A DNA stretch of 64,000 nucleotides from Escherichia coli (GTDB lineage: Bacteria; Pseudomonadota; Gammaproteobacteria; Enterobacterales; Enterobacteriaceae). Positions within the stretch are counted from its first letter, which is position 1, and every line of letters begins with the position of its first letter. A program made the translations under genes and the position numbers. The notes beneath the pieces are model-generated. The model ran no database searches. It saw only the letters and a program-made list of their open reading frames with translations, and was not told the origin of the DNA. Location: the NCBI RefSeq assembly GCF_045037415.1, contig NZ_CP173439.1; one strand, 5' to 3'. Below, in pieces: positions 28,513 to 50,478 of the stretch.

Positions 28513-29332
28513 GGCACTGTTGCAAAGTTAGCGATGAGGCAGCCTTTTGTCTTATTCAAAGGCCTTACATTTCAAAAACTCTGCTTACCAGGCGCATTTC
28601 GCCCAGGGGATCACCATAATAAAATGCTGAGGCCTGGCCTTTGCGTAGTGCACGCATCACCTCAATACCTTTGATGGTGGCGTAAGCCGTCTTCATGGAT
28701 TTAAATCCCAGCGTGGCGCCGATTATCCGTTTCAGTTTGCCATGATCGCATTCAATCACGTTGTTCCGGTACTTAATCTGTCGGTGTTCAACGTCAGACG
28801 GGCACCGGCCTTCGCGTTTGAGCAGAGCAAGCGCGCGACCATAGGCGGGCGCTTTATCCGTGTTGATGAATCGCGGGATCTGCCACTTCTTCACGTTGTT
28901 GAGGATTTTACCCAGAAACCGGTATGCAGCTTTGCTGTTACGACGGGAGGAGAGATAAAAATCGACAGTGCGGCCCCGGCTGTCGACGGCCCGGTACAGA
29001 TACGCCCAGCGACCATTGACCTTCACGTAGGTTTCATCCATGTGCCACGGGCAAAGATCGGAAGGGTTACGCCAGTACCAGCGCAGCCGTTTTTCCATTT
29101 CAGGCGCATAACGCTGAACCCAGCGGTAAATCGTGGAGTGATCGACATTCACTCCGCGTTCAGCCAGCATCTCCTGCAGCTCACGGTAACTGATGCCGTA
29201 TTTGCAGTACCAGCGTACGGCCCACAGAATGATGTCACGCTGAAAATGCCGGCCTTTGAATGGGTTCATGTGCAGCTCCATCAGCAAAAAGGGATGATAA
29301 GTTTATCACCACCGACTATTTGCAACAGTGCC
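28513..29332 (-). mobile_element. IS26
   Basis: 14-bp terminal repeats GGCACTGTTGCAAA at 28513-28526 and inverted at 29319-29332; 820 bp; Tnp26 ORF. Confidence 0.95.
28565..29269 (-). CDS. tnpA: IS26 transposase Tnp26
   Basis: 234-aa ORF starting MNPFKGRHFQRDIILWAVRWYCKYGISYRELQEM. Confidence 0.95.
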   Translation of the reverse strand: MNPFKGRHFQRDIILWAVRWYCKYGISYRELQEMLAERGVNVDHSTIYRWVQRYAPEMEKRLRWYWRNPSDLCPWHMDETYVKVNGRWAYLYRAVDSRGRTVDFYLSSRRNSKAAYRFLGKILNNVKKWQIPRFINTDKAPAYGRALALLKREGRCPSDVEHRQIKYRNNVIECDHGKLKRIIGATLGFKSMKTAYATIKGIEVMRALRKGQASAFYYGDPLGEMRLVSRVFEM

Positions 29333-30505
29333 ATTCTGAGCACTGTCGCGCTCGACGCTGTCGGCATCGGCCTGATTATGCCGGTGCTGCCGGGCCTCCT
29401 GCGCGATCTGGTTCACTCGAACGACGTCACCGCCCACTATGGCATTCTGCTGGCGCTGTATGCGTTGATGCAATTTGCCTGCGCACCTGTGCTGGGCGCG
29501 CTGTCGGATCGTTTCGGGCGGCGGCCGGTCTTGCTCGTCTCGCTGGCCGGCGCTGCTGTCGACTACGCCATCATGGCGACGGCGCCTTTCCTTTGGGTTC
29601 TCTATATCGGGCGGATCGTGGCCGGCATCACCGGGGCGACTGGGGCGGTAGCCGGCGCTTATATTGCCGATATCACTGATGGCGATGAGCGCGCGCGGCA
29701 CTTCGGCTTCATGAGCGCCTGTTTCGGGTTCGGGATGGTCGCGGGACCTGTGCTCGGTGGGCTGATGGGCGGTTTCTCCCCCCACGCTCCGTTCTTCGCC
29801 GCGGCAGCCTTGAACGGCCTCAATTTCCTGACGGGCTGTTTCCTTTTGCCGGAGTCGCACAAAGGCGAACGCCGGCCGTTACGCCGGGAGGCTCTCAACC
29901 CGCTCGCTTCGTTCCGGTGGGCCCGGGGCATGACCGTCGTCGCCGCCCTGATGGCGGTCTTCTTCATCATGCAACTTGTCGGACAGGTGCCGGCCGCGCT
30001 TTGGGTCATTTTCGGCGAGGATCGCTTTCACTGGGACGCGACCACGATCGGCATTTCGCTTGCCGCATTTGGCATTCTGCATTCACTCGCCCAGGCAATG
30101 ATCACCGGCCCTGTAGCCGCCCGGCTCGGCGAAAGGCGGGCACTCATGCTCGGAATGATTGCCGACGGCACAGGCTACATCCTGCTTGCCTTCGCGACAC
30201 GGGGATGGATGGCGTTCCCGATCATGGTCCTGCTTGCTTCGGGTGGCATCGGAATGCCGGCGCTGCAAGCAATGTTGTCCAGGCAGGTGGATGAGGAACG
30301 TCAGGGGCAGCTGCAAGGCTCACTGGCGGCGCTCACCAGCCTGACCTCGATCGTCGGACCCCTCCTCTTCACGGCGATCTATGCGGCTTCTATAACAACG
30401 TGGAACGGGTGGGCATGGATTGCAGGCGCTGCCCTCTACTTGCTCTGCCTGCCGGCGCTGCGTCGCGGGCTTTGGAGCGGCGCAGGGCAACGAGCCGATC
30501 GCTGA
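29294..30505 (+). CDS. tetA: Tet(A)-type tetracycline efflux MFS transporter, 5'-truncated by IS26 and in frame with an ATG inside IS26
   Basis: Sequence from LSTVALDAVGIGLIMPVLPGLLRDLV to GQRADR matches class A TetA; native first ~10 codons replaced by IS26-derived MISLSPPTICNSAI; function not established. Confidence 0.7.
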   Translation: MISLSPPTICNSAILSTVALDAVGIGLIMPVLPGLLRDLVHSNDVTAHYGILLALYALMQFACAPVLGALSDRFGRRPVLLVSLAGAAVDYAIMATAPFLWVLYIGRIVAGITGATGAVAGAYIADITDGDERARHFGFMSACFGFGMVAGPVLGGLMGGFSPHAPFFAAAALNGLNFLTGCFLLPESHKGERRPLRREALNPLASFRWARGMTVVAALMAVFFIMQLVGQVPAALWVIFGEDRFHWDATTIGISLAAFGILHSLAQAMITGPVAARLGERRALMLGMIADGTGYILLAFATRGWMAFPIMVLLASGGIGMPALQAMLSRQVDEERQGQLQGSLAALTSLTSIVGPLLFTAIYAASITTWNGWAWIAGAALYLLCLPALRRGLWSGAGQRADR

Positions 30506-30536: not shown

Positions 30537-31295
30537 TCAAGGCGACTTCCGGCAAGCTATACGCGCCCTAGGAGTGCGGTTGGAACGTTGGCCCAGCCAG
30601 ATACTCCCGATCACGAGCAGGACGCCGATGATTTGAAGCGCACTCAGCGTCTGATCCAAGAACAACCATCCTAGCAACACGGCGGTCCCCGGGCTGAGAA
30701 AGCCCAGTAAGGAAACAACTGTAGGTTCGAGTCGCGAGATCCCCCGGAACCAAAGGAAGTAGGTTAAACCCGCTCCGATCAGGCCGAGCCACGCCAGGCC
30801 GAGAACATTGGTTCCTGTAGGCATCGGGATTGGCGGATCAAACACTAAAGCTACTGGAACGAGCAGAAGTCCTCCGGCCGCCAGTTGCCAGGCGGTAAAG
30901 GTGAGCAGAGGCACGGGAGGTTGCCACTTGCGGGTCAGCACGGTTCCGAACGCCATGGAAACCGCCCCCGCCAAGCCCGCTGCGACGCCGACAGGATCTA
31001 GCGCTGCGTTTGGTGTCAACACCAACAGCGCCACGCCCGCAGTTCCGCAAATAGCCCCCAGGACCGCCATCAATCGTATCGGGCTACCTAGCAGAGCGGC
31101 AGAGATGAACACGACCATCAGCGGCTGCACAGCGCCTACCGTCGCCGCGACCCCGCCCGGCAGGCGGTAGACCGAAATAAACAACAAGCTCCAGAATAGC
31201 GAAATATTAAGTGCGCCGAGGATGAAGATGCGCATCCACCAGATTCCCGTTGGAATCTGTCGGACGATCATCACGAGCAATAAACCCGCCGGCAA
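30537..31295 (-). pseudogene. pecM: EamA/PecM-like DMT-family transporter, 5' end abutting IS1
   Basis: Ten-TM EamA-like protein convergent with tetA as in Tn1721-type contexts; the reading frame stays open into IS1 with no ATG. Confidence 0.5.
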
Positions 31296-31312
31296 CGGGT
31301 AATGACTCCAAC

Positions 31313-31816
31313 TTATTGATAGTGTTTTATGTTCAGATAATGCCCGATGACTTTGTCATGCAGCTCCACCGATTTTGAGAACGACAGCGACTTCCGTCCC
31401 AGCCGTGCCAGGTGCTGCCTCAGATTCAGGTTATGCCGCTCAATTCGCTGCGTATATCGCTTGCTGATTACGTGCAGCTTTCCCTTCAGGCGGGATTCAT
31501 ACAGCGGCCAGCCATCCGTCATCCATATCACCACGTCAAAGGGTGACAGCAGGCTCATAAGACGCCCCAGCGTCGCCATAGTGCGTTCACCGAATACGTG
31601 CGCAACAACCGTCTTCCGGAGCCTGTCATACGCGTAAAACAGCCAGCGCTGGCGCGATTTAGCCCCGACGTATCCCCACTGTTCGTCCATTTCCGCGCAG
31701 ACGATGACGTCACTGCCCGGCTGTATGCGCGAGGTTACCGACTGCGGCCTGAGTTTTTTAAATGGCGGAAAATCGTGTTGAGGCCAACGCCCATAATGCG
31801 GGCGGTTGCCCGGCAT
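31313..31816 (-). CDS. insB: IS1 InsB (expressed as InsAB' fusion by frameshifting)
   Basis: 167-aa ORF overlapping insA in the -1 frame. Confidence 0.9.
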
Positions 31817-32010
31817 CCAACGCCATTCATGGCCATATCAATGATTTTCTGGTGCGTACCGGGTTGAGAAGCGGTGTAAGTGAACTGCAGTTGCCATGTT
31901 TTACGGCAGTGAGAGCAGAGATAGCGCTGATGTCCGGCGGTGCTTTTGCCGTTACGCACCACCCCGTCAGTAGCTGAACAGGAGGGACAGCTGATAGAAA
32001 CAGAAGCCAC
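31735..32010 (-). CDS. insA: IS1 InsA
   Basis: 91-aa zinc-finger/HTH protein [21 protein letters not shown]. Confidence 0.95.
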
Positions 32011-32065
32011 TGGAGCACCTCAAAAACACCATCATACACTAAATCAGTAAGTTGGCAGCATCACC

Positions 32066-32461
32066 CACTTTCTCCTGCCAGAGACGCCGGATATCCTTTT
32101 CATCCCGACCAGTCAGTTTTTTACCGGACAGCAGACGGTTAAGCAGTTCCTGTCTCGCATCCGGTACGTCTTCAGTCAGACGCATAAGCCGGAGTAATTC
32201 CTGACGACTGAGTACCATGCGTGATTCCTCCGGTACGCTGTAATAATTAAAAATACGACTGAATACCCCACAACAGCAGGCAACGGACAGGCACAGGGAT
32301 TTCAGATACAGGCCAGAAACACAGAATGTGGCAACACCACAAAGAATAGCTATAACTAAAAATCCCTTACCCAGTGCCATACACAAAGAACCCTGTTTTC
32401 TGGATATCCGCTCATGCTCATCCAGAATAAAATCTATTTTTTCATTTTCTGATTTATGCAT
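32066..32461 (-). pseudogene. Small membrane protein downstream of traR, C-terminus replaced by IS1
   Basis: ORF 32039..32500 runs 26 nt into IS1 before stopping; hydrophobic segment GFLVIAILCGVATFCVSGLY. Confidence 0.45.
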
Positions 32462-32675
32462 AGTGTTTCCTCTGCCTTTCCTGATACGCCTGACATTCAA
32501 CGCACAACGTCACACCGGGAAATATTTTCCGCCGGGCTTCCGGAATAGGATTTCCGCATGCTTCACAGAGATAAACAGGAATACCATGAGCATTTATTTT
32601 CTGGCGTATCCGGTTTATTCCTGTCATGGTCAGTTGTTCTGTTACTGAATATGCTTCATCGGCTTCATCACTCAC
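32454..32675 (-). CDS. traR: TraR (DksA-like zinc-finger protein)
   Basis: 73 aa, C4 zinc finger CEACGNPIPEARRKIFPGVTLCVEC; position after traV. Confidence 0.9.
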   Translation of the reverse strand: MSDEADEAYSVTEQLTMTGINRIRQKINAHGIPVYLCEACGNPIPEARRKIFPGVTLCVECQAYQERQRKHYA

Positions 32676-32809
32676 GGAATATTCCTCCCGACATGTTCTG
32701 ACACGCTACCGCCCATCCCTTTTCACGCACAGGGCACTCGTTTTACAGGCAGATTTTGAATACAGAAAGCCCGCCGGCATTGCCGGCTGATATACAACTT
32801 CAGGGCCAG

Positions 32810-33325
32810 TTAATTAATACGTGGTTTTCCCCACGCAGACGGTTTAATAACAAAAAACACACTGGATGGTTGATGATAAACATCCTGATTATCAATATAA
32901 GGCGCTATCCATAATGCTGCCGTCTGCTCACCCGTTCTTAGCGGGCGGGGAGGTGTTACCGACGCAACTGAACTGACCGGAATAATCGTTTTCACTTCCC
33001 GGGCAGCCGTAAACAACGGACGTGGTGCCAGCAGTTTCTGCTCCGGAAGTGCAGTCACAGCAGGCCTGCTGCGGGACGGCGTTGTCGCCGCAACGGCCTG
33101 CACCGACGTGGTCCGGAAGTTCCCGTCAGCCAGGCGCGGCAGTGATGCCGCAGCCGGCTTTGCTTCTGAGGACTGCTCCAGTTTTTTGGCCTTCTCATTG
33201 GCCTGCTCCATAGTCATACAGGTATCGGATGTGGTGGCATCACACTCAAAATCGGAGTTCGTTCCGGCACAGCCGGAAAGTAATAACGTCCCCAGCAGCG
33301 GAATAAATAAAGAAATCTGTTTCAT
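32810..33325 (-). CDS. traV: TraV lipoprotein (T4SS outer-membrane core)
   Basis: 171 aa, lipobox LLLSGCAG; F-like gene order. Confidence 0.9.
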   Translation of the reverse strand: MKQISLFIPLLGTLLLSGCAGTNSDFECDATTSDTCMTMEQANEKAKKLEQSSEAKPAAASLPRLADGNFRTTSVQAVAATTPSRSRPAVTALPEQKLLAPRPLFTAAREVKTIIPVSSVASVTPPRPLRTGEQTAALWIAPYIDNQDVYHQPSSVFFVIKPSAWGKPRIN

Positions 33326-33573
33326 TGTCCCTCACCTTTCTCATCGCAGTTCACAAAATCATTCTTCAAATCCCTGACCGTACAGTTTTTTACAATGTCA
33401 GGATTTTCAAAAACCGTATTCCGTGATGATTTATAAACATATGCCACAATGCGTTCTTCCCCCGCATCAGCTTCTGGTGCACTGACTTCACATAACGGAG
33501 GTGTTATTCCGGACTCATACAGCACCGGATAATTTATTTTTTTGACGCTGCCATCAGAAACCAGCTTATTCAT
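33322..33573 (-). CDS. trbG: TrbG
   Basis: 83-aa ORF between trbD-like and traV as in F. Confidence 0.7.
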   Translation of the reverse strand: MNKLVSDGSVKKINYPVLYESGITPPLCEVSAPEADAGEERIVAYVYKSSRNTVFENPDIVKNCTVRDLKNDFVNCDEKGEGQ

Positions 33574-33817
33574 CGAAGGGTTCCTTATATTTCTGAATAA
33601 TTCTGTCGATTAGTTCTTTCACCGGAACAGATTTTCCGCCACCGGATTGTCCGGCAACCACAATATGCCCCGGAGAAGAAAATAAACGCATCGACATTCC
33701 CTCCTTCATCACACCGACAGCAGCCATATTAAAATTGTGCGGCAATGATTCAGAACCGAATTTCTTCAGTGCAGGAAGAACTATCCTTGTGGTGCAGTTA
33801 CTGAGAACAGCATGCAT
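33566..33817 (-). CDS. trbD: TrbD-like small protein (start uncertain)
   Basis: ORF between traP and trbG; several candidate starts. Confidence 0.4.
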   Translation of the reverse strand: MHAVLSNCTTRIVLPALKKFGSESLPHNFNMAAVGVMKEGMSMRLFSSPGHIVVAGQSGGGKSVPVKELIDRIIQKYKEPFDE

Positions 33818-33872
33818 AAAATCATCTGATACGTTTTTATCCGGCACAGCGCGGGCAGTAATAACATTAATA

Positions 33873-34463
33873 TTACGCATGTTCATTTTTATCTCCGTTG
33901 CTTCTGTTTGTTCTGTCATCATGGAAATAAACAGGGCATTTCCTGATTTTTTCCGGCAGGGAAGCGTCTTCCGTATAAACTTCCTTCAGATGTTCATCTG
34001 CGGTTCCCACCCGGACACATTTCATTTTTCCGGGCCACATCGGATATTTCCCGGTGCCTGCCGCAAACGACATATACATCAGTGCCAGCGTTGCCCAGAA
34101 TGCGGTGACCAGTTGCATCAGTGACCGGTCAGTCTCCCTGACATAATCTGCAGCATCAGCCGCGCGGTAATGGCAGATATCCTGTATTTCTGATCTGCCT
34201 GAAGAATCAGAGGAAGAAAACCAGCATTCACTGACCGGGAACTGTCCGGCAGGTGCTGTTTGTCTTACGAAGTTAATCTCCTTAACCAGTAATTTCCCCG
34301 GCGTGGTGTTGTCCTTCCATAAAACAAACAGAGCCATCAGGGCCATTGTGGCCAGTGGCAGAATGACGGTGTACTTCAGACACCAGAACAGTCCTCGCAG
34401 AACCCGGGCGACAACATACCGGGCGGCATGGCACGCCTGACGGGACGACATATTATTTGCCAT
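33873..34463 (-). CDS. traP: TraP
   Basis: 196-aa membrane protein between traB and trbD. Confidence 0.8.
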   Translation of the reverse strand: MANNMSSRQACHAARYVVARVLRGLFWCLKYTVILPLATMALMALFVLWKDNTTPGKLLVKEINFVRQTAPAGQFPVSECWFSSSDSSGRSEIQDICHYRAADAADYVRETDRSLMQLVTAFWATLALMYMSFAAGTGKYPMWPGKMKCVRVGTADEHLKEVYTEDASLPEKIRKCPVYFHDDRTNRSNGDKNEHA

Positions 34464-35880
34464 CGTTGCCTCCTCCCTGGCTGCCGGACATAAACTGCTG
34501 CGGATTCAGGTTGCCCAGCTGCTTCAGCATCTGGTCAGTATTAAAGCCGTTAAGATGACTTTCAGCTGATGGCGGAACAGGAACCGGACTTTCCGGATTA
34601 TCTTCTTCCGCTCTGTTCTGCGTGCGCTCCAGCGCCATCTCTTCCACGGTTTTCAGCTGGAAGCCGTCCTGGAACACCACGGTCACTTCGTTGCCCGCAC
34701 CAATCGGTATCACCGGGTGATACTGTTCGGCACGTTTGATGTAGTAGTCACTGAGCGTCTGTGCGGCTTTCGATGCGCCGCCACCGATACCCATTTTCAG
34801 GACATCACCAGCCCCGTAAGCGGCTGTGGCACCCAGCCCGACAGCCGGCTGGGAGGCGCGCTCCATTCCCTGACCGATACCGTCAACAAATCCCGCGCCC
34901 CATGCCCAGCCGAGGATTTTGCCGTTACGCATCACCACTTCGCCCTTGATACCGTTTTTACCCCGGAAGCTGACATGCCCCTTAATCGGCATATCAATAG
35001 TTTTGCCGTCCTTCAGGCAACTGATATTGCGGGTGCGTACAATGGCACGCTCACTGGACACATCCCCCCAGGCTTCCAGCCCCACAAAACATCCCGTTGC
35101 GTCATACGTCTTGCTGTTCGGCATTTCCACCAGGCCGGTGATACGCAACTGCATCGGCACCGTGGATTCATTACCGGTGACTGAGGCATTGGCATCCGCC
35201 CCTTCAATCAGCATGGCTTTCGCAAAACTTCCTGACGGAATGTACGGCAGCGATGTTCCCTGTTTTCCCTCATTACGGGTAAACACCTTACGCTGTATCC
35301 GGTTAGGCACCGGCACAGACTGGTACGTCACCTGTGGTGGTGGCGTGACACCATTCCCGGGATAAAACGCCGTCGGCGGTGGAACAGCAACGCTGCCCTG
35401 CGGCGGGAAGGATACGGGGGTGTTTCCTGGCTGTGGTTCGCCTTCCGGCCCGGGCGGTGAGGCAGGCATCTGAGGTACAGGCTCACCGGTCGCCGTGACG
35501 GGATTAGCACCCAGGGCTTTTACCTGCTCTGCCAGGGCAGCATTATCCTGTCCCAGCTTTTCAATACGACGCTGGTCATCACCGCGCTGTTTGTTCAGGA
35601 CATCCAGTTCACGACGGATTTCCTCATACTGCTTCTGCATCTGCGCTGCCGTCACCTGCATCTCTGTGGTGGCATGCTGACGCACCTTGTCATCAAAGGT
35701 CGTATCCACCACACCGGTCATATCCGGCACAGGCTCCTGTTCAGCCACGGTTTCACCGTTACCGGACATGTCCACATCAGACAGATACAGTGCCCCACCA
35801 ATCGCGGAGGCTGCACCGACAACCACAATCCCCAGCCACAGGTACTGCTTGCGTTTCACAATGGTATTGATACTGGCCAT
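34453..35880 (-). CDS. traB: TraB (VirB10-like T4SS core)
   Basis: 475 aa, N-terminal TM, Pro-rich region, C-terminal VirB10-like domain. Confidence 0.9.
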   Translation of the reverse strand: MASINTIVKRKQYLWLGIVVVGAASAIGGALYLSDVDMSGNGETVAEQEPVPDMTGVVDTTFDDKVRQHATTEMQVTAAQMQKQYEEIRRELDVLNKQRGDDQRRIEKLGQDNAALAEQVKALGANPVTATGEPVPQMPASPPGPEGEPQPGNTPVSFPPQGSVAVPPPTAFYPGNGVTPPPQVTYQSVPVPNRIQRKVFTRNEGKQGTSLPYIPSGSFAKAMLIEGADANASVTGNESTVPMQLRITGLVEMPNSKTYDATGCFVGLEAWGDVSSERAIVRTRNISCLKDGKTIDMPIKGHVSFRGKNGIKGEVVMRNGKILGWAWGAGFVDGIGQGMERASQPAVGLGATAAYGAGDVLKMGIGGGASKAAQTLSDYYIKRAEQYHPVIPIGAGNEVTVVFQDGFQLKTVEEMALERTQNRAEEDNPESPVPVPPSAESHLNGFNTDQMLKQLGNLNPQQFMSGSQGGGNDGK

Positions 35881-36608
35881 CAGTTGCCCTCCCCGTCACG
35901 GATGACATACACATCCATGCGCGCACCTGCCAGTAACTGGCTGGCAGGCTGGCTGAACATCACGGCACGGGTTCCCGGCTGCCAGAAATCACTTTCCCGG
36001 ATATTCAGGGCAGACAGCGTTTTATTTTCCACGGCAAAGCGGACCATCTTCAGGTGATTCCCCGTCCATACGGCATCTGCCACTGAAGACAGCCCCGCCG
36101 GGGCCTGCAGGGTTTCCTTTGTCACAGGAACCTGATACCAGCCGGCGGGTAATTTTCCGCCACGGACAGCCTGGCTGATGGTCACAAGCAGGGATTCGTA
36201 AGGCGTGGACGTTTCCCACGCGCCGGCTTCTTCTCCGGTTCCGCGCAGGTCACTGACCAGCTGAATGGTACGCCCCGCGCCTTCACGGGGAACAGCCTGA
36301 ATGGAAAGGTTCAGACCACGTTCTGTTTCCAGAATGAACGTAAAGGGCTTTTTGTTGACGGTGGCCACCACCACACCGCCGGAGGCGGTCTGCTCATTAT
36401 TGGTCAGGGCACCATCCAGACTGTTCACGGCGATAATCCGGTCACCGGGAACGGTAAACAGATTCGGGCTGGTATTGCTGATGGCAATACTGGCCTGACC
36501 ACCGTTCACCATTGGCACCACGGTGGGGGCCAGCGTACCGTTTGCGGCCATCACGCTGCAGGAAAAAAACAGGCTGCCGAATATTATTGCCGTATTATTT
36601 TTTCTCAT
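35880..36608 (-). CDS. traK: TraK (VirB9/secretin-like)
   Basis: 242 aa with signal peptide; gene order. Confidence 0.9.
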
Positions 36609-37161
36609 CGTCTGTTTCCCCGAAATTATCCAGCCAGGTCACCCCGTTTTCCCGCTTCAGAATAAGGATGTAATGTTTGATATCAATAAAAGGTTCGGAG
36701 TTACCAATCCATGTTTTCCGAATTCCACGGATTTCCACACGACCATACTGAGGCCAGACACGGACACTGGTCTGGAAAAAAGCAGAATTCACGTTATCTT
36801 TTTTAATGAGTTTCGCTTCTTCAGCCAGAATAACTTTCATCTGGTTCTGTGCGCCCGGGCGGATATATTGCAGAAGCGCCTGATGTGAGGCATCGACGAT
36901 TTCCGGTGAGACATTCAGACGGAGGGCAATAAATGACAGCGCCATCTGCTGCAAATAAGAGGCATCGGCACTGTTCTGTGACACGGCAAAGGGCACATTA
37001 AATCCCATTGGCGTCACGGCAGTGCGTTGCTCATTCTGAAGGCGGTAGTTATTCACCCCCTGAATGACGTTAACAGAGAGGCTGAGAACAATAAGCACTG
37101 ACATAAATATAAAGGCGATGGCCATTACACGACTGGTACTTAAACGGGCACCGTGTTCCAT
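36595..37161 (-). CDS. traE: TraE (VirB5-like pilus assembly)
   Basis: 188 aa with N-terminal TM. Confidence 0.9.
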
Positions 37162-37182
37162 ATAACAATCCTGGTATCAGTT

Positions 37183-37494
37183 CTATTTAATCCACTGCCG
37201 GAAACACGAATCGGGAACATTATGAAAAATACCGCGCAGCAGGGCTGTTGGCATATACCAGTAAATCAGGTCACGTAACCAGGAACTGCCTCGCCCTTTT
37301 TTCAGTTTTTTAATCCCGAAATAAACCAGAACCGCTGCACCAATACCGAACAGATATTTCGATGTTGTGATACCCCAGCCAACACAGATTGCTGCGGGGA
37401 TCAGTTCATCCAGTGGCAGGCCAAACCAGCGGCTCTGGTTGGTCAGTGTTTCCGGGAAACGATATTTCTTAAGTTTATTCTCGTCTCCCGACAT
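37183..37494 (-). CDS. traL: TraL
   Basis: Small membrane protein following traA. Confidence 0.85.
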
Positions 37495-37508
37495 CGTTTT
37501 ATTTCCTG

Positions 37509-37868
37509 TCAGAATCCGGCAACAGACATACCTACTGCAATAAATACAGAGAGTATGGCAAAGCCGACCAGGAACTTGACGTTTTTGGTCATCATGTACA
37601 TGACCGCACCGACCAGCACCTCAGCCAGAACAACCCATTTAACGATACTGGAGTCCTTACCGAAGGTCGCCTTAACCGTATCGTTACCTTTAGCCATCAG
37701 GTCGCCTTTACCAGCAGCCATAGCTAACTCAGGGAACAACATCATCAGAACAGCAACCGGGATCACTGCACGAACCAGGCGAAGCATATTCAGACGAGTG
37801 AATTTAGAAAAAAACGACTTCTTTTTGACGGGCGCAGAAGCACCCTGAACACTTAAAACAGTATTCAT
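37509..37868 (-). CDS. traA: TraA propilin (F-pilin)
   Basis: 119 aa with long leader and pilin core [48 protein letters not shown]. Confidence 0.95.
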
Positions 37869-37901
37869 ATGATTCCTCTGATTAATATTGACAGATGAAA
37901 A

Positions 37902-38129
37902 CTAAAGTTCTTTAAATGTTGACTCGTTCTCTTCGATCACCTCCCTGAATATTTCTTCATTATAGAAATCAGGAAACCGTTTCAGATGATCTCTGAGACG
38001 GATCTGAACCTCTATAGTTTTACTTCTACCGCTACGATCTTTGGCCCGAATAAGTCGGTTATTTGTATCTTCATCGAGATACACTGAAACTGTTCTGCTT
38101 ATCCCGCCTCTCGCGTTACGCCTCCTCAC
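37902..38129 (-). CDS. traY: TraY (relaxosome accessory, RHH)
   Basis: 75-aa basic protein between traJ and traA. Confidence 0.85.
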   Translation of the reverse strand: MRRRNARGGISRTVSVYLDEDTNNRLIRAKDRSGRSKTIEVQIRLRDHLKRFPDFYNEEIFREVIEENESTFKEL

Positions 38130-38222
38130 TCAATTCACCTCTGTTTCCCGACTAATAAAATCATGATTGCACAGAAACCGACGAAAAAAAACACGCCAAA
38201 ATTGGCGTGCCTTGTTTAACAT

Positions 38223-38909
38223 TTACTTAACACCATAAAATTCACGAATTATACTTAATAGCGAATCTATTTCTCCTTTATAGATACATGACACTCTGAA
38301 TAAATCAAAGTGTTCAAAAAATCCTTTTATTTTCCGTTTAACTGGTTTAATTCGATCCTCAGATGCTCTGTCTGTAATACCCAACTCTCTGGCAATTGTT
38401 GCGTGACCAACACCCAGCATATAAAAAGAGAAAACAACCAATGTCCCTGGAGAAAGATCATTCCATATCGTTAATTTATCAGAAGTATTTGTATTACTTC
38501 CACTCTGATTTAACGCAAAAAATGGATAATCAGGAAACGGATTAATTTGCCATAAAACAACAGATTCGTCATTATAAAAAGAAACATTCTCCATCCTTAT
38601 CTGATAGATTTCGCCATGAAAATTAAAACGACGACAAAATGCAGAGCCATGTCCAAGAGCCTGGCATTCCAGTTCAAGTGATGAAAGAAAAATTTCAACC
38701 TGCAGACGTATATAACTCTCTCCGGATAAGGGTTTATCTTCTCTGGAAAAGAGTTCAATAAAAGCCCCATTGGCATAAAGGATTTTCCGGTTGTTGTTAC
38801 GGACACAAACCGGAACGGGAGAATTTCTGTAGATATTCTGAACGTTAAGGATGTATTTATTTACAGATTGACTGTTAAGTGGCCTTTCTCTACGATCCAG
38901 CGCACACAT
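38223..38909 (-). CDS. traJ: TraJ transfer activator
   Basis: 228 aa from ATG 38909 with GGAGG RBS; C-terminal HTH. Confidence 0.85.
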
Positions 38910-38979
38910 AGGAACCTCCGTTAAGGATTCTATGGACAGTCGATGCAGGGAGGTCTGAACTCCCTGCATCGGCGATTTT
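38900..38979 (+). ncRNA. finP: FinP antisense RNA (candidate)
   Basis: Opposite strand of the traJ RBS/start; hairpin GATGCAGGGAGGTCTGAACTCCCTGCATC followed by GGCGATTTT. Confidence 0.55.
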
Positions 38980-39102
38980 CAGTTTCAATTTTTAACGTGG
39001 CATTAACCACGTAATTAATATAACCTTTATGCGGTTAATTGTCATCAAATTGAACCAGATCAAAATCCTGTTATTTGAAGCAAATCAACTTTTAATTCCT
39101 TT

Positions 39103-39486
39103 TTATTCCTCATCATTTTCTGGAAAGAACCTCTCCATCTCAGATGACACCTTATCCCTGATATCTTCGACCATATTCGCATATTCAAACTTTGGATTCC
39201 CGGAAACATGAGGGCTTAGTGACTCAATACCTAAAATCTTAGCAACTGTTGACTGTGTTTTTACCGCACATTCAAGAAGTACCTTATTAAACTCAGCCTG
39301 ATTGAACGCTGACTCTTTACGCTCCATCTGAGCCTCATGTACACGAAGCCCTAATTCGAGAAGCATAGTGGATATGCTTGAGAAACTTACATCTGTACTT
39401 TTAGCTCCTTCTGCACGTCTTCTTTCCACAATTTTATTTATTTTATAGACAATTTCGTCACTGACATAAGCCTGCACTTTCGCCAT
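39103..39486 (-). CDS. traM: TraM relaxosome protein
   Basis: 127 aa, MAKVQAYVSDEIVYKINKIVERRRAEGAK. Confidence 0.95.
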   Translation of the reverse strand: MAKVQAYVSDEIVYKINKIVERRRAEGAKSTDVSFSSISTMLLELGLRVHEAQMERKESAFNQAEFNKVLLECAVKTQSTVAKILGIESLSPHVSGNPKFEYANMVEDIRDKVSSEMERFFPENDEE

Positions 39487-39499
39487 ATGTATACCTCTT

Positions 39500-39900
39500 T
39501 ATTTTCTTATCGCATCAAATTTATTTCACATATAAAAAAATGACAATTCATCGATGAATCGAATCGTGACGCAAGTTACGAAAATTACGATTCATGCAGC
39601 AAATCACATCACGAATTGAATCTAGAGTCAATTCGCTTTAACTCGTTGTTTTATTATTACTGATTCATCTATGAGTTGCGTTAAATTCATAGGTGAATCA
39701 TATGCGATTCACCTATGAATCCTTTTTATAATGTAAAATAAATTAAAATACATTATTTAAAACATAAGTTAATGATTCAAATAGCAAATCAGCAAAAACT
39801 TGTTTTTGCGTAGTGTGTGGTGCTTTTGGTGGTGAGAACCACCAACCTGTTGAGCCTTTTTGTGGAGTGGGTTAAATTATTTACGGATAAAGTCACCAGA
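39500..39900 (+). other. oriT: oriT region with F-like nic site
   Basis: Between traM and gene X; GCGTAGTGTGTGGTGCTTTTGG at about 39810-39832 resembles the F nic region; AT-rich tract and inverted repeats upstream. Confidence 0.7.
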
Positions 39901-39909
39901 GGTGGGAAA

Positions 39910-40419
39910 ATGAAAAAATGGATGTTAGCCATCTGCCTGATGTTTATAAATGAGATCTGCCAGGCCACTGATTGCTTTGATCTTGCAGGCCGGGATTACA
40001 AAATAGATCCTGATTTACTGAGAGCAATATCATGGAAAGAATCCCGTTACCGGGTTAATGCCATCGGTATTAATCCGGTAACGGGATATGGCAGCGGACT
40101 GATGCAGGTAGATTCCCAGCATTTTAACGAACTGGCCCGCTATGGAATTAAGCCGGAACATCTGACAACAGATCCCTGCATGAACATTTATACCGGTGCT
40201 TATTATCTGGCAATAGCCTTTAAAAAATGGGGCGTCTCCTGGGAGGCCGTTGGTGCATACAATGCCGGATTCAGGAAGACCGAACGCCAGAACCAGAGAC
40301 GTCTTGCCTACGCATCAGAGGTTTACCGGATTTATACCGGGATAAAAAGCAGTAAAGGTATCCGGATTCCGGTCACGAAGAAATCACTTCCGGAAATCAA
40401 CAGCGTGCAGAACAATTAA
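39910..40419 (+). CDS. Lytic transglycosylase (F gene X / orf169-like)
   Basis: 169 aa, signal peptide, SLT motifs ISWKESRY and AYNAG. Confidence 0.85.
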
Positions 40420-40713
40420 TCTTACAGACATTGTCAGATACCGGTTATGCCGCAAAAGCGGCATGAAGGCCACACACAAAAATATCATATGAGTGACAAT
40501 GCTGACTGGCCGAAGCCCCGCGAAGCGGGAACCCATCTTATATATACCCGGTAACTGCGCAGCCTCCTGCCAGACCATTTTTCGCGGGCACAATATTTAC
40601 AGACAACCGGAAAGCCGGTTGATGGAATTGAGGTATATCAGACGACACAGCGATGCCGAAGAATGATAATATAAGTAAAGCCCCGAAAAATTTTCGGGGC
40701 TTTACTTATATTA

Positions 40714-41535
40714 TCATGACTTCCACTTTCTGAACTGTTCGGCAATCACCCATAACGCCTTGTTGATTCTTATATCACCATCAATACCTGTAATGGCTCT
40801 TGTCCTGGTATTTTTCCCGGAGGCACTTCGCCCCGATAATCCACCTTTTATCATATTCTCCTGAACCCGCTGCCAGGTTGTCCAGAGATCGTTCTGTTTG
40901 TCTTCCCGACGACGGGGAGTAATTATCTGTTCAGGTGTCACTGGCGTTTTATTTTCATCTTCATACCTGACCATCAGTGCAGCTCTGCCAAATAAATGTT
41001 GCTCGTCACTGTTAAGATGAATTTCTTTCATCGCCTCCATATTATCAGTGACCTTATCAAAGACACCGAGCACTTCATACGCTCCCTCGATAACCTGCCC
41101 GACAATATCACCTTTATGTGGAACGCGGATTTCGCCAAAATTATTTCCGCACACCAGGCCATTTGTGCAGACAAAACGAAAAATTCCGGGGATCATCTGA
41201 TAACTGGATGAACCATCATGTGAATTAAGCAGGATAATTTCAGGAACTTCCTGTCCGTTAATATGCCCTTCCCTGCGAAGACGTAACATATGTTTACTGT
41301 ATTCGCGACGTCCCAAATCACGAACCCGACTCTGACAGGCAAAGAATGGCTGGAAACCTTCATCACGTAACTTATTGATGATATTGATTGTTGGAATATA
41401 CGTATAACGTTCACTCCGGGACTCATGTTTATCACCGGAAAATACCGAAGGCACGAACTGCATTAATTCATCATCCGTTAAAGGACGTTCACGGCGGATG
41501 GAATTATACCGACCAAAACGGGAAGCTAATCGCAT
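40714..41535 (-). CDS. Leading-region conserved protein of unknown function (273 aa)
   Basis: AAGGAG RBS before ATG 41535; position typical of F-like leading regions. Confidence 0.6.
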   Translation of the reverse strand: MRLASRFGRYNSIRRERPLTDDELMQFVPSVFSGDKHESRSERYTYIPTINIINKLRDEGFQPFFACQSRVRDLGRREYSKHMLRLRREGHINGQEVPEIILLNSHDGSSSYQMIPGIFRFVCTNGLVCGNNFGEIRVPHKGDIVGQVIEGAYEVLGVFDKVTDNMEAMKEIHLNSDEQHLFGRAALMVRYEDENKTPVTPEQIITPRRREDKQNDLWTTWQRVQENMIKGGLSGRSASGKNTRTRAITGIDGDIRINKALWVIAEQFRKWKS

Positions 41536-41655
41536 AACAGCTACTCCTTTATGAAAGAATAAATTTAATAAAAAATTTTTCCGCTTAATATCATCCCCCC
41601 CCCGATCTCCATTAACAAGATTGCAACAATCAGGAGGGATATTCATCACATCCGG

Positions 41656-41943
41656 TCAGCAGATCGCCCGGATATCGAGGCCGGCACGCTTAATCTGACG
41701 CAGGAACTGTTTGAAGTGATCGGCTTCCGCAATGTTGATATGGCGGAACTGCTTATCCACACCCTGACTGAGCGCGTAGCTATAACTGAAGGCCATCTTT
41801 TCCGGGTGGCTTTTGCGATATTTTTTCAGCTCAGTCAGGCTGCTGAATTCCAGGACGTCCCACTCTTCCCCGGTGTTTTTTTTCTTCCCGGCAACAAGAA
41901 GCGTGTACGACGCGGTGTTAACGTGGATATTTCGGGTACTCAT
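41656..41943 (-). CDS. Leading-region small protein (95 aa)
   Basis: ORF directly downstream of repeat copy 1. Confidence 0.45.
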   Translation of the reverse strand: MSTRNIHVNTASYTLLVAGKKKNTGEEWDVLEFSSLTELKKYRKSHPEKMAFSYSYALSQGVDKQFRHINIAEADHFKQFLRQIKRAGLDIRAIC

Positions 41944-41964
41944 CCTGCTTTCTCCTCTCTCTGG

Positions 41965-42317
41965 TTTTCAGCCCCCATCATCTGTTGAGTTTCGGGACCC
42001 GCCGCAACGACGTGAAGCGCGGTTTGCGAAACGGCGTTGCGCCTTACATCCCGGCGGCCTTTTGCCGGGATGCCAGGAGCGCAGGCCACGGCGCGACAGA
42101 GGCGGCGCGACCGGAACGGTCGCTGCAAGCCCGGGGTTTTCACGCATCGGACCGTAGCGACAGCCCGAAACCGCGCCAGCGGGTTCGGCGGAGACTGGCA
42201 GGTGCGCCAGCAGCTGCCAGTCGGAGTCGGGCCTGACGACCGGATGCCGCCAGGCAGCCGGGAGCCGAAGGTGCGCCCGGCAGACAGGACAACACTGCAG
42301 TAGTCAGAATCAGAGCA
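41965..42317 (+). repeat. Structured GC-rich leading-region repeat, copy 1 (short form; ssi/Frpo-like)
   Basis: About 350 bp near-identical to the outer parts of copies at 47113 and 50479; many hairpins (CCCGGCGGCCTTTTGCCGGG). Confidence 0.7.
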
Positions 42318-42589
42318 GGAAGAAAAAGAGAATAATCACAGGGAAGGTGATGTGATTTCTGACAGGCCATAACCAGAGAAGGCGGGGGAAAAGAACGGGC
42401 GCCGCAGGCGCACGTTCATCCCCGTTCCTGAAGGGAAACGACCTTCCTGAAGTCAGGTTGTTCATGCCCGTACAACATCAGCAAGGAGAAAGGGGCTACC
42501 GGCGAACCAGCAGCCCCTTTATAAAGGCGCTTCAGTAGTCAGACCAGCATCAGTCCTGAAAAGGCGGGCCTGCGCCCGCCTCCAGGTTG

Positions 42590-42748
42590 CTACTTACCGG
42601 ATTCGTAAGCCATGAAAGCCGCCACCTCCCTGTGTCCGTCTCTGTAACGAATCTCGCACAGCGATTTTCGTGTCAGATAAGTGAATATCAACAGTGTGAG
42701 ACACACGATCAACACACACCAGACAAGGGAACTTCGTGGTAGTTTCAT
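42590..42748 (-). CDS. hok: Hok/FlmA-family membrane toxin
   Basis: 52-aa [55 protein letters not shown]. Confidence 0.9.
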
Positions 42749-42806
42749 GGCCTTCTTCTCCTTGCGCAAAGCGCGGTAAGAGGCTATCCTGATGTGGACT
42801 AGACAT
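42594..42806 (-). CDS. mok: Mok/FlmC overlapping leader ORF
   Basis: 70-aa ORF overlapping hok in another frame. Confidence 0.6.
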
Positions 42807-42860
42807 AGGGATGCCTCGTGGTGGTTAATGAAAATTAACTTACTACGGGGCTATCTTCTT
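42780..42860 (+). ncRNA. sok: Sok/FlmB antisense RNA (approximate position)
   Basis: Inferred from hok/mok architecture only; ends not determined. Confidence 0.3.
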
Positions 42861-43027
42861 TCTGCCACACAACACGACAACAAACCACCTTCACGTCATG
42901 AGGCAGAAAGCCTCAAGCGCCGGGCACATCATAGCCCATATACCTGCACGCTGACCACACTCACTTTCCCTGAAAATAATCCGCTCATTCAGACCGTTCA
43001 CGGGAAATCCGTGTGATTGTTGCCGCA

Positions 43028-43747
43028 TCACGCTGCCTCCCGGAGTTTGTTCGGCACCATCCACCGCTCCATCTCACGGACAGCGTGACCGGCCTCTCTT
43101 GCTGCAAGACTGGCTTCCGCAATAACCTGCCAGAACGGCATATCCTGCCACTGCCAGCGTTCCATTCCGGCCAGTGACGGAAAACGCTCGCCCCACTGCC
43201 AGAACAGGGTTTCCAGGTCATGCTCTGCCACCCGGTCACTCCAGCGTGCATGCCAGCTTCCGACTGTTTCCGGTGAATGGAACGCCAGTTCGATTTCAGC
43301 CTGGGCGACCAGCGCCTGGTACGCACGGGCTTTCTGCTCTGCCTCCCGTGCCTGCTGGCGGCTGTACTTCTGCATGACCAGCGCGGATTTATGGCGACTG
43401 CGTTCCCTGACACGAAACCGCACCGACGGGAACAACCGCTCTGCTGCATCACCGGGAAGGGGAAGGAGGCAGACCTCGCCCTGTGTTTCAATCAGCACAT
43501 CGATGGCATACAGCCACTGAAGACGGTTGCCGTGCAGTTCTTCTGCGGTCAGGGACGGCATGAAAAATCGCAGGTCAGACAGCGATATCCTGCGGCTTCC
43601 GTTCAGACAGCGGAAAAACGCCCCCGCATACGGATATTCAGCCAGCGTGTTACCCTGATGGCGGCGTTTTTCGGTCTCCGCCACCGCCCGCCATGCGGCC
43701 TGTTGCTCTGTGCTGAGAGGAACCAGTGCCTGTGAACGTGCGCTCAT
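43028..43747 (-). CDS. psiA: PsiA
   Basis: 239 aa, overlaps psiB stop. Confidence 0.9.
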
Positions 43748-44178
43748 GCCTGACCCCCTTCCGCCATCAGGATATGGATGATGTCACTGACGCTGTACCC
43801 CTGCGCGTCCAGTGACGCCGCCAGTGCCAGTGAATGGCTGACGGCTTCCGGTGCAAACCGCCGCTGTACCTGAACCACCGCAAACGGCTCACCACCGGCA
43901 TTCACCAGAACCAGCACCCAGACCTGAGAGACATCGCCCGGTGAACATAACGCCAGGTGAAAACGTTCGTGGGCAGGCGTGAAACGGACCTGGACGGGGA
44001 AAAATCCGCCAAACTCGCTGCCGTACTCGCCGTTCATCGTCCAGTTGTCCGGCGCATCCAGCTCCCGCATCACGGCGTGTGTCAGCTCACGGCGTTCATC
44101 ACTTCCGGCAGCCCGGATATCTTCATATTCCTGTGCGTTCATGGTCTGTAATACATTCAGGGTCAGTTCAGTTTTCAT
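43744..44178 (-). CDS. psiB: PsiB (SOS inhibitor)
   Basis: About 144 aa, [20 protein letters not shown]. Confidence 0.9.
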
Positions 44179-44232
44179 CACGGTATCTCCCTTGCTGCCG
44201 CCCCGTCTCCGGCGGGGCGGTGTGGTTGTTCA

Positions 44233-46191
44233 TCAGGCGGCATCAGCCAGGTTATCGGTACGTTCAGTGGCATCCGTCTGTGGGCGTGGTGCACACATCC
44301 AGCCAGGCACCCAGCGGTTGTCTTTCATGTGGAACTCTGCATGTTCAGCCGCATCGCCTTTCTTCATCTTCTCCGCGTCCCGTGCAGCACCGGACAGTCC
44401 GGCCTCATTCAGGGCTGCGATAATCTGCGGCTTTTTCAGGTGTCCGAAGAAGTTTGCTTTTGTCGGCTGCCACCAGTCGCGCATGTGGAATCCGATAGCG
44501 GTTTCCAGCGGGTCAAGCGGACTGCGTGACGTGTGACCACACTCGCGGGTCTGAACGCCGTGGATGCTGCACGCAGTGCAGAAACTGAGCAGGGATAACA
44601 GCACCTCCTGGCTGAGTGACAGGAACGTCGTCATGTCCCGTGACCATCCCTCCGGCAACAGGGCGACCAAACGTGCTTTTTCTGCCATCAGCGCCATGAA
44701 TGCGGCACCTTCCTTCCCTGACGGCGCATCGCTGGTCAGCGAATAATGTTTACATTCCAGGCTGATTTGTGCTGGTTTACTGTACGCCCCGCTGCCAAAC
44801 ACATTCAGGCAGAGCGTCCATGCCAGCAGTGCCAGGGATTTGTCCGGCTGCTGCATCAGTGCTGCCTGGACTGCCAGCGTGCGCTCTGAGGACATTTTCG
44901 TCAGCAGTGGCAGACTGATTTCCTCCACGGAGGCTTTCTCCTGCACCTGTTCCGTGTGGTCAGCGTCGTCAGCCACATCATCCTCACTGCGTAACTGCAC
45001 ACCACGCTGGACACATACGTTTCCATAACGCCAGGACACCACCACGCCACTTCCGGCACGCATCTCCGGCGTCCACGCCCTGACCTTCGCCATGCAGTCA
45101 ATCAGCTTCATTTCTGCTTCCAGCAGGTCGGATTCCTCACACTGGTTTTCCAGCGCATCGTAACGTGCCATCAGTTCGTTCAGGCGTTCTTCTTCTGCCT
45201 CCGTCAGCACCGCTTCCGGCTCCGGCAGACTGCGGTATGTTCCGGCATCCTCACGGCACTCACCAACGGCCTCCATGCGTCCGGCACACCATCTCCAGCC
45301 CTCGGCTTCCCGAAGGTGTTCAGCAACAGCCTGGAGTTTTTCCAGCAGGGCAGCATCGAGCGCAACACAGTCCACATAGCCACCCTCGTCGTCGCTGAAC
45401 AAATCGGTGCGCAGTTCATCTGGCGAGAAGGCATCAGCCCCCACAAAGCGGAATTTAGTGTTCCCCACCACCGCCACTTCACTTTCGGTCACCAGACGAC
45501 GAATGGTCTGTACTTCCGGTTTTCCGCCCCATCCCGACTGACAGGCAGCTTCAAACACCTGCACCTGACGCGCGGTGTCGTTCTCCAGCGCCAGCGCCTG
45601 ACAGTGCTCTGTGGTGATGCGGTCTTCTGCCAGCGCATCGAGGATGACAGGCGCAAGGTCTGCCAGTTTCAGCATTCGCTGAACGTGGCGGGGTGAATAG
45701 CCCAGCAAATCACCGATTTGTGCAGGCGTTTTGCCTTCCTGCGCCATTGCACGGAATCCGGCAATCTGTTCGGCAGGGTGCATATCCCGACGATGACCGT
45801 TTTCAGTCATTGATGCGGCAGTCGCCAGTTCCTGCGGAATAACCTTCACGCGGACAGGCCAGTCAGCCGGAAGGATGTTGCGCTCTGCCAGCATGTTGAG
45901 TGCTGCCAGTCGGCGACCGCCTGCGGCGACACCGTAACGGTCACCTGGCAGGGCATGAACAACCAGATTCTGCAGCAGGCCGACGCCCTGAATGGACTCT
46001 GCCAGTTCGCTGACGGACTCCGCAGAATACGGCACCGTGCGCACATTCAGCGGTGACTTAATCAGCGAGGCCAGCGGCACGCTCACTTCAGCCGTCTCCG
46101 CCAGCAGGGCCGACAGGACTGTTTCCTGCGTTTTTGCAGGTTTACGGCTGGATTTACGCTCCGTTTTTACCTTAGACTCTGTAACTGACAT
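44233..46191 (-). CDS. ParB-like nuclease domain protein (leading region, 652 aa)
   Basis: N-terminal ParB/Srx-like domain; AGGAG RBS before ATG 46191. Confidence 0.75.
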   Translation of the reverse strand: MSVTESKVKTERKSSRKPAKTQETVLSALLAETAEVSVPLASLIKSPLNVRTVPYSAESVSELAESIQGVGLLQNLVVHALPGDRYGVAAGGRRLAALNMLAERNILPADWPVRVKVIPQELATAASMTENGHRRDMHPAEQIAGFRAMAQEGKTPAQIGDLLGYSPRHVQRMLKLADLAPVILDALAEDRITTEHCQALALENDTARQVQVFEAACQSGWGGKPEVQTIRRLVTESEVAVVGNTKFRFVGADAFSPDELRTDLFSDDEGGYVDCVALDAALLEKLQAVAEHLREAEGWRWCAGRMEAVGECREDAGTYRSLPEPEAVLTEAEEERLNELMARYDALENQCEESDLLEAEMKLIDCMAKVRAWTPEMRAGSGVVVSWRYGNVCVQRGVQLRSEDDVADDADHTEQVQEKASVEEISLPLLTKMSSERTLAVQAALMQQPDKSLALLAWTLCLNVFGSGAYSKPAQISLECKHYSLTSDAPSGKEGAAFMALMAEKARLVALLPEGWSRDMTTFLSLSQEVLLSLLSFCTACSIHGVQTRECGHTSRSPLDPLETAIGFHMRDWWQPTKANFFGHLKKPQIIAALNEAGLSGAARDAEKMKKGDAAEHAEFHMKDNRWVPGWMCAPRPQTDATERTDNLADAA

Positions 46192-46255
46192 ATATTTCTC
46201 CTTTGACCGGGGTGGTTGTATGTCTGCCGGACGTGATCCCCGTCCGGCACCTCTC

Positions 46256-47740
<1,485 letters not shown>

Positions 47741-47757
47741 GCAGGAAAAAGAAGAGC

Positions 47758-47813
47758 AGTAGCAGTAGCAGTAGCAGTAGCAGTAGCAGTAGCAGTAGCA
47801 GTAGCAGTAGCAG
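47758..47813 (+). repeat. Hexanucleotide tandem repeat (GCAGTA)n, about 9 units
   Basis: Perfect AGCAGT/GCAGTA repeats; not present at the equivalent position of copies 1 and 3. Confidence 0.9.
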
Positions 47814-47992
47814 GAACAACAACATCATCAGTAACAGACAAATGACAGGTCTGAAAAGACAGAAGCCCCCATCAGAACGTCCGCGTAATGAAAGGGGCGG
47901 CGCGTGAGCGCAGCCCCTTTCAGCGCCACCGGCGCGCGGTCTTTTCCCGGCGCGGACAGACGGGCATTTATCCTCCCGCCAGCCCTGTGTCA

Positions 47993-48556
47993 TCAGGCAC
48001 GCAAACGAATAATCATCGTCGGGACATCGGTATAAGCAAACGTGCCGCGCGGCAGCTCCTCGCGGACGTCAGAAAACGGTAACAGCTTCTCCTGCTGGCG
48101 TGGCCCGTTGAGACAGACGGCAACCAGAACGCCCCCCGGACGCAACAGGGAAAAAGCCCGCAGGATATGCCGGATATCCTGCCCGTGACTGAACGGCGGA
48201 TTCATAATGATCCGGCTGTAATACTGCACCGGCTGCCATTCCATGAAGTCGCCACACTGAACCCTGACACCGTTAAAATTTTCCCGCAGATACCGGACCA
48301 GCCCGCTGTTAATCTCCACCGCATCACACATGGCCTCCGGCGCGGTATCCCGAATAGCCCGCAGTATGGCCCCGGTGCCGGCAGAGGGTTCCAGAATGTG
48401 ATCACGGTTGCTGATTTCCGCCAGCGTCACCAGGCGATCACAGACCGGGGCAGGAGTCACAAAAAGCTGAGATTCAGCCCGGATTTCAGCAACCGGCGCG
48501 GCGTTATCCAGCCTTGCGCGCATCAGCCGGATACGTTCTCTTAACTGACTGTGCAT
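47993..48556 (-). CDS. Orphan SAM-dependent DNA adenine methyltransferase-like protein
   Basis: SAM-binding LEPSAGTGAI and NPPF catalytic motif; no adjacent restriction gene. Confidence 0.7.
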   Translation of the reverse strand: MHSQLRERIRLMRARLDNAAPVAEIRAESQLFVTPAPVCDRLVTLAEISNRDHILEPSAGTGAILRAIRDTAPEAMCDAVEINSGLVRYLRENFNGVRVQCGDFMEWQPVQYYSRIIMNPPFSHGQDIRHILRAFSLLRPGGVLVAVCLNGPRQQEKLLPFSDVREELPRGTFAYTDVPTMIIRLRA

Positions 48557-48602
48557 GTCATTATCTCCGTCATCCCCCGGGGATTTCCCGGGGGGATATA
48601 CC

Positions 48603-49964: not shown

Positions 49965-50015
49965 AAAATGTTCTCCTTCCGTCTGTTGCCGCCCCTCGCG
50001 GGGCGGCTCACCTCA

Positions 50016-50246: not shown

Positions 50247-50478
50247 AAATGAAACTCCTTATGACAAATTGGTTAATAATGCCGTCAAAATTGGTTGCGC
50301 AATTCTTACGGCGTGGATTAAGCAGGTCCCTGACCTGCTTTTTTCATATCTGCGTCTGACGTTCTCCGGTGTTTTCCTCCTTCTGTTCCTGCGTTCTCAT
50401 TACCTGCCAGCCGGATGACTGACAGAACAAATAAATGCATATTGCCGGAGCCTGAAATAAATCCTGATTTTTAAAGAA

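Follow-up and report, generated by a model that had tools for sequence, protein, structure and literature searches.

pEK516 (NC_013121.1 / EU935738), a plasmid of Escherichia coli ST131, is a close described counterpart of the locus reported here. Its original description reportedly comes from Woodford and colleagues in 2009. The plasmid is a complete 64.5-kb circle that keeps oriT and the genes from traM to traR, and from which traC to finO have been deleted. It encodes no relaxase and is typed in PLSDB as mobilizable, and a bioRxiv preprint describes it as usually non-conjugative (10.1101/2020.05.07.081380). A second relative, pRHBSTW-00177_5 (CP056798.1), is an intact 69-kb ColV IncFII plasmid that is typed as conjugative (MOBF/MPF_F). 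More generally, decayed conjugative plasmids are described as keeping an oriT of conjugative type and are predicted to be mobilised in trans (Ares-Arroyo, Coluzzi & Rocha, PMC10123127). Truncation of tra by insertion sequences, with loss of conjugation, is reported to be common in IncF plasmids and affected all five ST131 IncF plasmids in one study (10.1101/2021.08.17.456450).

We analyzed a stretch of 64,000 nucleotides of E. coli contig NZ_CP173439.1 (assembly GCF_045037415.1), here called the window. Like pEK516, the window retains oriT and traM to traR, and in both sequences an equally oriented IS1 meets the ORF downstream of traR at one and the same nucleotide. In pEK516 the other side of IS1 is a nuclease/hha/RepFII region, whereas the window has a Tn1721 remnant there. 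The tra backbones of the two also differ, with 8 SNPs in the 635 bp beside the junction and ~97% identity overall, and trbG is not annotated in pEK516. Their IS1 copies are separated by 2 SNPs.

The 13 proximal Tra proteins of the window are the same as those of pRHBSTW-00177_5. Unlike the window, that plasmid has the full ORF downstream of traR, traC...traI, traX, finO and RepFII, and no IS1. It also differs from the window in having a group II intron beside ssb and in having no cjr-senB or resistance module. The window resembles the pdCONJ and pOriT plasmids of PTU-FE in carrying several MPF genes of an incomplete set together with an ancestral oriT of conjugative type; those plasmids originate by deletion from a conjugative plasmid, and the class is defined on the whole replicon, of which 64 kb were read here. 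The phenomenon is an ordinary one, and is already documented down to the same junction in pEK516. The window adds one instance of the IS-driven decay of IncF plasmids into oriT-bearing mobilisable plasmids, a well-described process.

A transfer operon interrupted after traR

We searched the window by tblastn with the proteins of CP056798.1. traM, traJ, traY, traA, traL, traE, traK, traB, traP, trbD, trbG, traV and traR each matched at 100% identity over their full length (Table 1), and the DNA of this proximal block is 99.98% identical to CP056798.1 across 14,990 bp. Together with the exact nic motif described below, these matches bear out the sequence-only reading, in which oriT and the genes from traM to traR had been described as intact and in F order.

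The same reading had reported that traC and all distal tra genes are absent from the window, and this agrees with the searches. None of the 31 CP056798.1 proteins encoded past the truncated ORF, in the tra/finO/hha/copB segment, had a match in the window at E ≤ 1e-3 (tblastn). The unmatched distal set includes two small ORFs before traC, traC, trbI, traW, traU, trbC, traN, traF and traQ, and also traH, traG, traS, traT, traD, traI, traX and finO. When three allele sets of distal tra DNA were compared with the 64-kb window by blastn (word size 11), only IS sequences were recovered.

The MPF genes found within the window are traA, traL, traE, traK, traB and traV, in addition to traP, trbD, trbG and traR. 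With no TraI or TraD, and with an MPF_F set that lacks TraC, traW, traU, trbC, traN, traF, traH and traG, the content of the window falls short of that of a self-transmissible MOBF/MPF_F plasmid. Within the 64-kb window it corresponds to the definition of pdCONJ (at least two MPF genes, MPF incomplete), a definition that concerns the whole replicon.

Downstream of traR, the transfer operon ends at IS1, as the sequence-only reading had claimed, and the next ORF runs into the element. This accessory ORF keeps residues 1-132 of 158 at 100% identity to CP056798.1 (tblastn), and these 132 native codons are followed by 8 IS1-encoded codons. The ORF has no Pfam or NCBIfam family match and is uncharacterised, and it is absent altogether from F-like plasmids such as pEC958. 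No exact record of the ORF-IS1 fusion protein (140 aa) was found in the assembly collection.

No RepFIB, RepFII RepA1 or FIA-type initiator gene was found across the 64-kb window, and thus the replicon continues outside it. Our assessment leans modestly towards the distal genes being absent from the whole replicon. A distal set, complete or partial, that sits at another place on the replicon in a cointegrate or translocation form is given a distinctly lower probability, and partial remnants account for what is left.

Table 1. Coordinates of features at the interrupted transfer operon and beside it (positions in the 64,000-nucleotide window)
Feature	Position	Strand	Remarks
IS26	28513-29332	-	820-bp match, 99.4-99.9% to IS26 of pEC958 and pDLI.6n; inverted repeat ends at 29332
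tet(A) of Tn1721	29333-30505	+	First 27 bp (9 codons) missing; tetR(A) absent
EamA-family (pecM-like) gene of Tn1721	30537-31297	-	First 100 bp missing at IS1; 761 bp kept of 861 bp in pDLI.6n
IS1 (IS1B-like), complete, 768 bp	31298-32065	-	Terminal inverted repeats and insA/insB ORFs; orientation as tra operon
insB ORF, 167 aa	31313-31816	-	
insA ORF, 91 aa	31735-32010	-	
Truncated accessory ORF downstream of traR	32039-32461	-	Native part 32066-32461; start at 32461 overlaps traR end
Promoter-proximal tra block, traM to traR, 13 genes intact	32454-39486	-	F order
traR	32675-32454	-	tblastn 100%
FinP antisense RNA	38903-38979	+	Rfam RF00107, 91.2 bits
traJ 5' UTR	38904-39012	-	Rfam RF00243, 118.3 bits
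traM	39486-39103	-	tblastn 100%
oriT nic region, GCGTAGTGTGT/GGTGCTTTTGGTGG, presumed R100-type	39815-39832	+	Single exact motif match

The IS1 junction and its possible origin

The element at the end of the operon has the size, the insA and insB' frames on one strand and the inverted repeats of IS1. The terminal repeats are imperfect (GGTAATGACTCCAACTTATTGAT / GGTGATGCTGCCAACTTACTGAT), with matches at 18 of the 23 end positions. Relatives carry this sequence under the annotation IS1B family transposase, and it matches the IS1 copies of pWS1933D_95 and of other plasmids at 100% identity. The truncated ORF directly adjoins its insA-side end. No second IS1 copy was found within the 64-kb window, and no 9-bp target duplication surrounds the element, the flanks being ccggcaacg (left) and cactttctc (right). 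The missing duplication argues against a simple insertion, not against the identity of the element as IS1. Given the unrelated flanks and the absence of a 9-bp repeat, the IS1 is a rearrangement junction, formed by adjacent deletion or as a cointegrate, rather than a simple insertion.

On the left, IS1 is followed by the Tn1721 remnant, IS26 and then ~28 kb of virulence and iron-uptake cargo. The sequence-only reading had named Tn1721-derived and IS26 sequence as the neighbours. Both do adjoin, but the Tn1721 piece amounts to only 1,965 bp, without tetR. It is an internal remnant bounded by IS26 and IS1 and does not have the full complement of a complete Tn1721 (tnpA/tnpR, tetR-tet(A), 38-bp inverted repeats). 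The truncation of tet(A) is seen where window position 29333 aligns to position 14151 of the comparison sequence L007, in which tet(A) starts at 14124, and the tet(A) translation ...ILSTVALDAVGIG begins directly past the end of IS26. Collinearity with FIB-type cjr-senB/iron-uptake plasmids covers positions 1-29332 and stops with that IS26. The junction between the truncated EamA gene and IS1 also occurs in other plasmids and in chromosomes; in pWS1933D_95 it is 100% identical over 1,368 bp, the whole IS1 included. The search returned no contiguous match to the exact IS26/tet(A)...EamA/IS1 configuration. As a separate observation, an open frame leads out of the IS26 end and continues in frame into tet(A); a possible ATG in it at 29293 would give MISLSPPTICNSA-ILSTV... 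and a putative fusion at 29293-30505.

Classical replicative transposition of IS1 yields an adjacent deletion when intramolecular and a cointegrate when intermolecular, and the element keeps one old flank and acquires one new flank; recombination between two IS1 copies also gives a cointegrate. We consider it likely that the IS1 in the window marks where an IS1-mediated rearrangement broke an R100-type F-like (IncFII) transfer operon apart, most likely by adjacent deletion. In detail, IS1 would already have been resident at the edge of the Tn1721-derived resistance remnant, beside the truncated EamA gene, and its target would have lain 396 bp inside the dispensable 477-bp ORF that follows traR. 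In retaining its old left neighbour and gaining a new right one, it would have been left with no flanking target duplication. The event would most likely have been an adjacent deletion by intramolecular replicative transposition, removing traC through finO.

The direction of this event is suggested by the two flanks. The left flank pre-exists elsewhere, and CP056798.1, the intact relative of the right flank, has no IS1 and carries traC-finO directly downstream of the ORF. In combination, this indicates that IS1 attacked the ORF from the resistance edge and kept its left flank. The deletion mechanism is deduced from the end product, and within the window a deletion and a cointegrate would look alike. 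The reciprocal junction, ...TGCATTGCATCCACTTTCTC/GGTAATGACTCC (the 3' part of the ORF, 9 bp and IS1), is absent from all PLSDB plasmids, which mildly favours deletion.

We regard as unlikely an IS1 cointegrate or translocation, in which the IS1 of a FIB-type cjr-senB/resistance plasmid fused that plasmid to a free pRHBSTW-00177_5-like plasmid via the ORF. In that case the rest of the ORF, together with traC-traI-finO, would lie beyond RepFII, past the right end of the window and beside a second IS1, and the operon would be split rather than lost. Such an origin is consistent with the intact relative, which is 99.97-99.98% identical over 32 kb and exists as a free 69-kb plasmid without IS1; for this reason, one IS1 event between two molecules would be as economical as a fusion followed by a deletion. 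Where the truncated EamA gene occurs elsewhere, the IS1 beside it has the same sequence as the one in the window, which points to the latter having come from the resistance side, and the window has no rep gene and ends heading towards RepFII. There is also a precedent in an ST131 IncF plasmid, where part of the distal half of tra lies 29.5 kb from the proximal half (10.1101/2021.08.17.456450). However, neither a second IS1 nor distal tra DNA is present in the 64 kb, no PLSDB plasmid has the reciprocal junction at this site, and pEK516, the only other instance of the IS1/ORF junction, is a deletion. Even if the two plasmids had been fused in this way, the distal genes would be cut off from PY, and self-transfer would probably still fail.

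It is very improbable that the junction is an assembly artefact, with two real IS1 junctions from different places or molecules joined through a collapsed IS1 repeat. Each half-junction is known separately in other records, and none in PLSDB or among 5,426 complete E. coli genomes has both. In the same collections (72,556 PLSDB plasmids and the 5,426 genomes), no record covers at least 80% of positions 30700-32700; the 28-36 kb stretch had no full-length match, and the 36-nt junction sequence had 0 exact-pattern matches in a scan of JGI metagenome contigs. Against an artefact, the window runs unbroken through IS26 and IS1 with no sign of a misjoin in the sequence. Moreover, IS1 interrupts the ORF at that nucleotide whatever lies on its other side, and the operon is severed regardless. 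A simple IS1 insertion with traC immediately after it, for which only the presence of a complete IS1 speaks, was rejected: the DNA to the left of the element belongs to Tn1721 instead of being the remainder of the ORF, and the 9-bp repeat that such an insertion would leave is missing.

Adjacent deletion, the reading we prefer, has its counterpart in pEK516 at the same nucleotide. A 110-nt query over the IS1/ORF junction matched 1 of the 72,556 PLSDB plasmids (pEK516) and 0 of the 5,426 complete E. coli genomes. The target at the junction reads GCATC/CAC and the IS1 end reads GCATCACC, at position 32066 in the window and ~14748 in pEK516. The window flank at the junction has 0 SNPs relative to pRHBSTW-00177_5, and the first of the 8 SNPs that separate it from pEK516 lies 33 bp from IS1. 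The use of the same junction nucleotide in backbones that differ by ~1-3%, together with the 2-SNP difference between the IS1 copies, suggests a hot spot. We therefore propose, tentatively and with rather less than even confidence, that IS1 may have a sequence-specific hot spot at this site, 396 bp into the ORF, and may have hit it independently in at least two diverged IncFII backbones. If true, conjugative F-like plasmids with resistance and virulence genes would repeatedly and convergently lose traC-finO through IS1 attack at this site and still keep oriT. In other records, IS1 occurs near traR at other positions, as a simple insertion between trbG and traV, as an insertion that truncates traV, and at a deletion from traR to traU. 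These records indicate recurrence in the region, not at this nucleotide.

oriT, regulation and predicted mobility

The nic motif GTGTGGTGCTTTTGGTGG has one occurrence in the window, compared with 0.01 expected by chance. It lies between traM and the SLT gene in the context GCGTAGTGTGT/GG. We take this to be an R100-type rather than an F-type nic sequence, with the nick presumably after GTGT on the + strand; the primary papers relevant to this distinction are reportedly those of Harley and Schildbach from 2003 and of Fekete and Frost from 2000. From this nick position, the leading region (~40-52 kb) would enter the recipient first. The window contains an oriT with nic, traM and traY, the last two at 100% identity to their counterparts in CP056798.1. 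Both FinP and the traJ 5' UTR were recognised by Rfam (Table 1), and finO, the partner of FinP, had no match in the window.

Transcription from PY would end in IS1, after traR. The severed operon would not provide the VirB4-type ATPase TraC, most of the pilus-assembly and mating-pair genes, TraD, the relaxase/helicase TraI, TraS/TraT or FinO, and the plasmid would neither build a pilus nor nick its own oriT. Without TraC, TraW, TraU, TrbC, TraN, TraF, TraQ, TraH and TraG, neither a pilus nor a mating pair is formed, and without TraI and TraD, oriT is not nicked and not coupled to the pore. Loss of TraS/TraT removes entry exclusion, and the acquisition of a helper should become easier. Loss of FinO should destabilise FinP, which may lead to costly expression of traJ and the truncated operon.

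Given its gene content, the plasmid is probably a decayed conjugative plasmid that is mobilisable by a helper. As oriT, traM, traY, traJ and finP are kept, a co-resident F-like plasmid could mobilise it in trans, provided that the helper has an R100-type TraI and a compatible TraD. The sequence-only reading had held that, unless the distal tra genes are found elsewhere on the replicon, the plasmid is unable to self-transfer but could be mobilised, and this functional reading is plausible. This helper specificity (R100-type TraI, TraM-TraD fit) is the one that would be expected from the literature. Self-transfer is unlikely even with the distal genes elsewhere, judging from the organisation of the F tra operon, with its single long PY transcript, and the polarity of IS1, since IS1 and >31 kb of foreign DNA would stand between PY and any distal genes that survive. 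A traC-traI block elsewhere on the replicon would not by itself restore self-transfer. If the lesion holds, vertical inheritance and helper-mediated mobilisation would be the main ways for this ColV, cjr-senB and iron-uptake plasmid to spread, and with entry exclusion absent, the host could receive F-like helpers.

Two backbones and their cargo

The window joins segments with different relatives. Positions 1-29332 are 99.69% identical to and collinear with NZ_CP069461.1, a FIB-type plasmid with cjrABC-senB and several iron-uptake systems. Positions 32062-64000 are collinear with pRHBSTW-00177_5 at 99.97-99.98% identity over ~32 kb, and contain the proximal tra genes, oriT, the leading region (psiAB, ssb, hok/sok), parM, pemIK and the colicin V operon. 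For the left half, the parent comparison covered pDLI.6n, pR6-1255-1, pWS1933D_95 and NZ_CP069461.1, and is informative on module order. At its right end the window is collinear with pRHBSTW-00177_5 heading towards RepFII, and in that plasmid hha, finO, traX and traI sit behind RepFII. By position in the relatives, RepFIB is ~9 kb past the left end of the window and RepFII ~2-3 kb past the right end.

The colicin V export genes (HlyD-family and CvaB ORFs, 59435-62798) are on the same replicon as cjrABC-senB and the iron-uptake genes at ~7-27 kb. From collinearity with pRHBSTW-00177_5, cvaC and cvi are expected at ~62971-63493. The contiguous form of this mosaic of a ColV-FII backbone and a FIB virulence module was not found in PLSDB.

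NZ_CP069461.1, the best relative of the left half of the window, has a complementary defect (39270-50000), with the leading region followed by an IS5-family element and then trbE-traF...traG. The ~1.8 kb that separate the IS5 element from trbE carry no annotated gene, and the annotation of the 50-kb stretch examined lists none of the proximal tra genes from traM through traN; the PLSDB type of this plasmid is nevertheless conjugative.

At 47051/47052, pRHBSTW-00177_5 has ~2.66 kb of extra sequence beside ssb, which includes the group II intron (ltrA), and the flanks join cleanly in the window. The leading region also contains a repeat of 340-630 bp in three copies that are 92-97% identical (41994-42332, 47124-47752 and 50479-51105). 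They probably correspond to the repeats of single-strand initiation/promoter type that are known in the leading regions of F-like plasmids. Rfam matches were found to AS-pc01, an antisense RNA first described on pHK01, at 50241-50343, and to the ALIL pseudoknot, a frameshift element of IS3-family insertion sequences, at 14380-14496.
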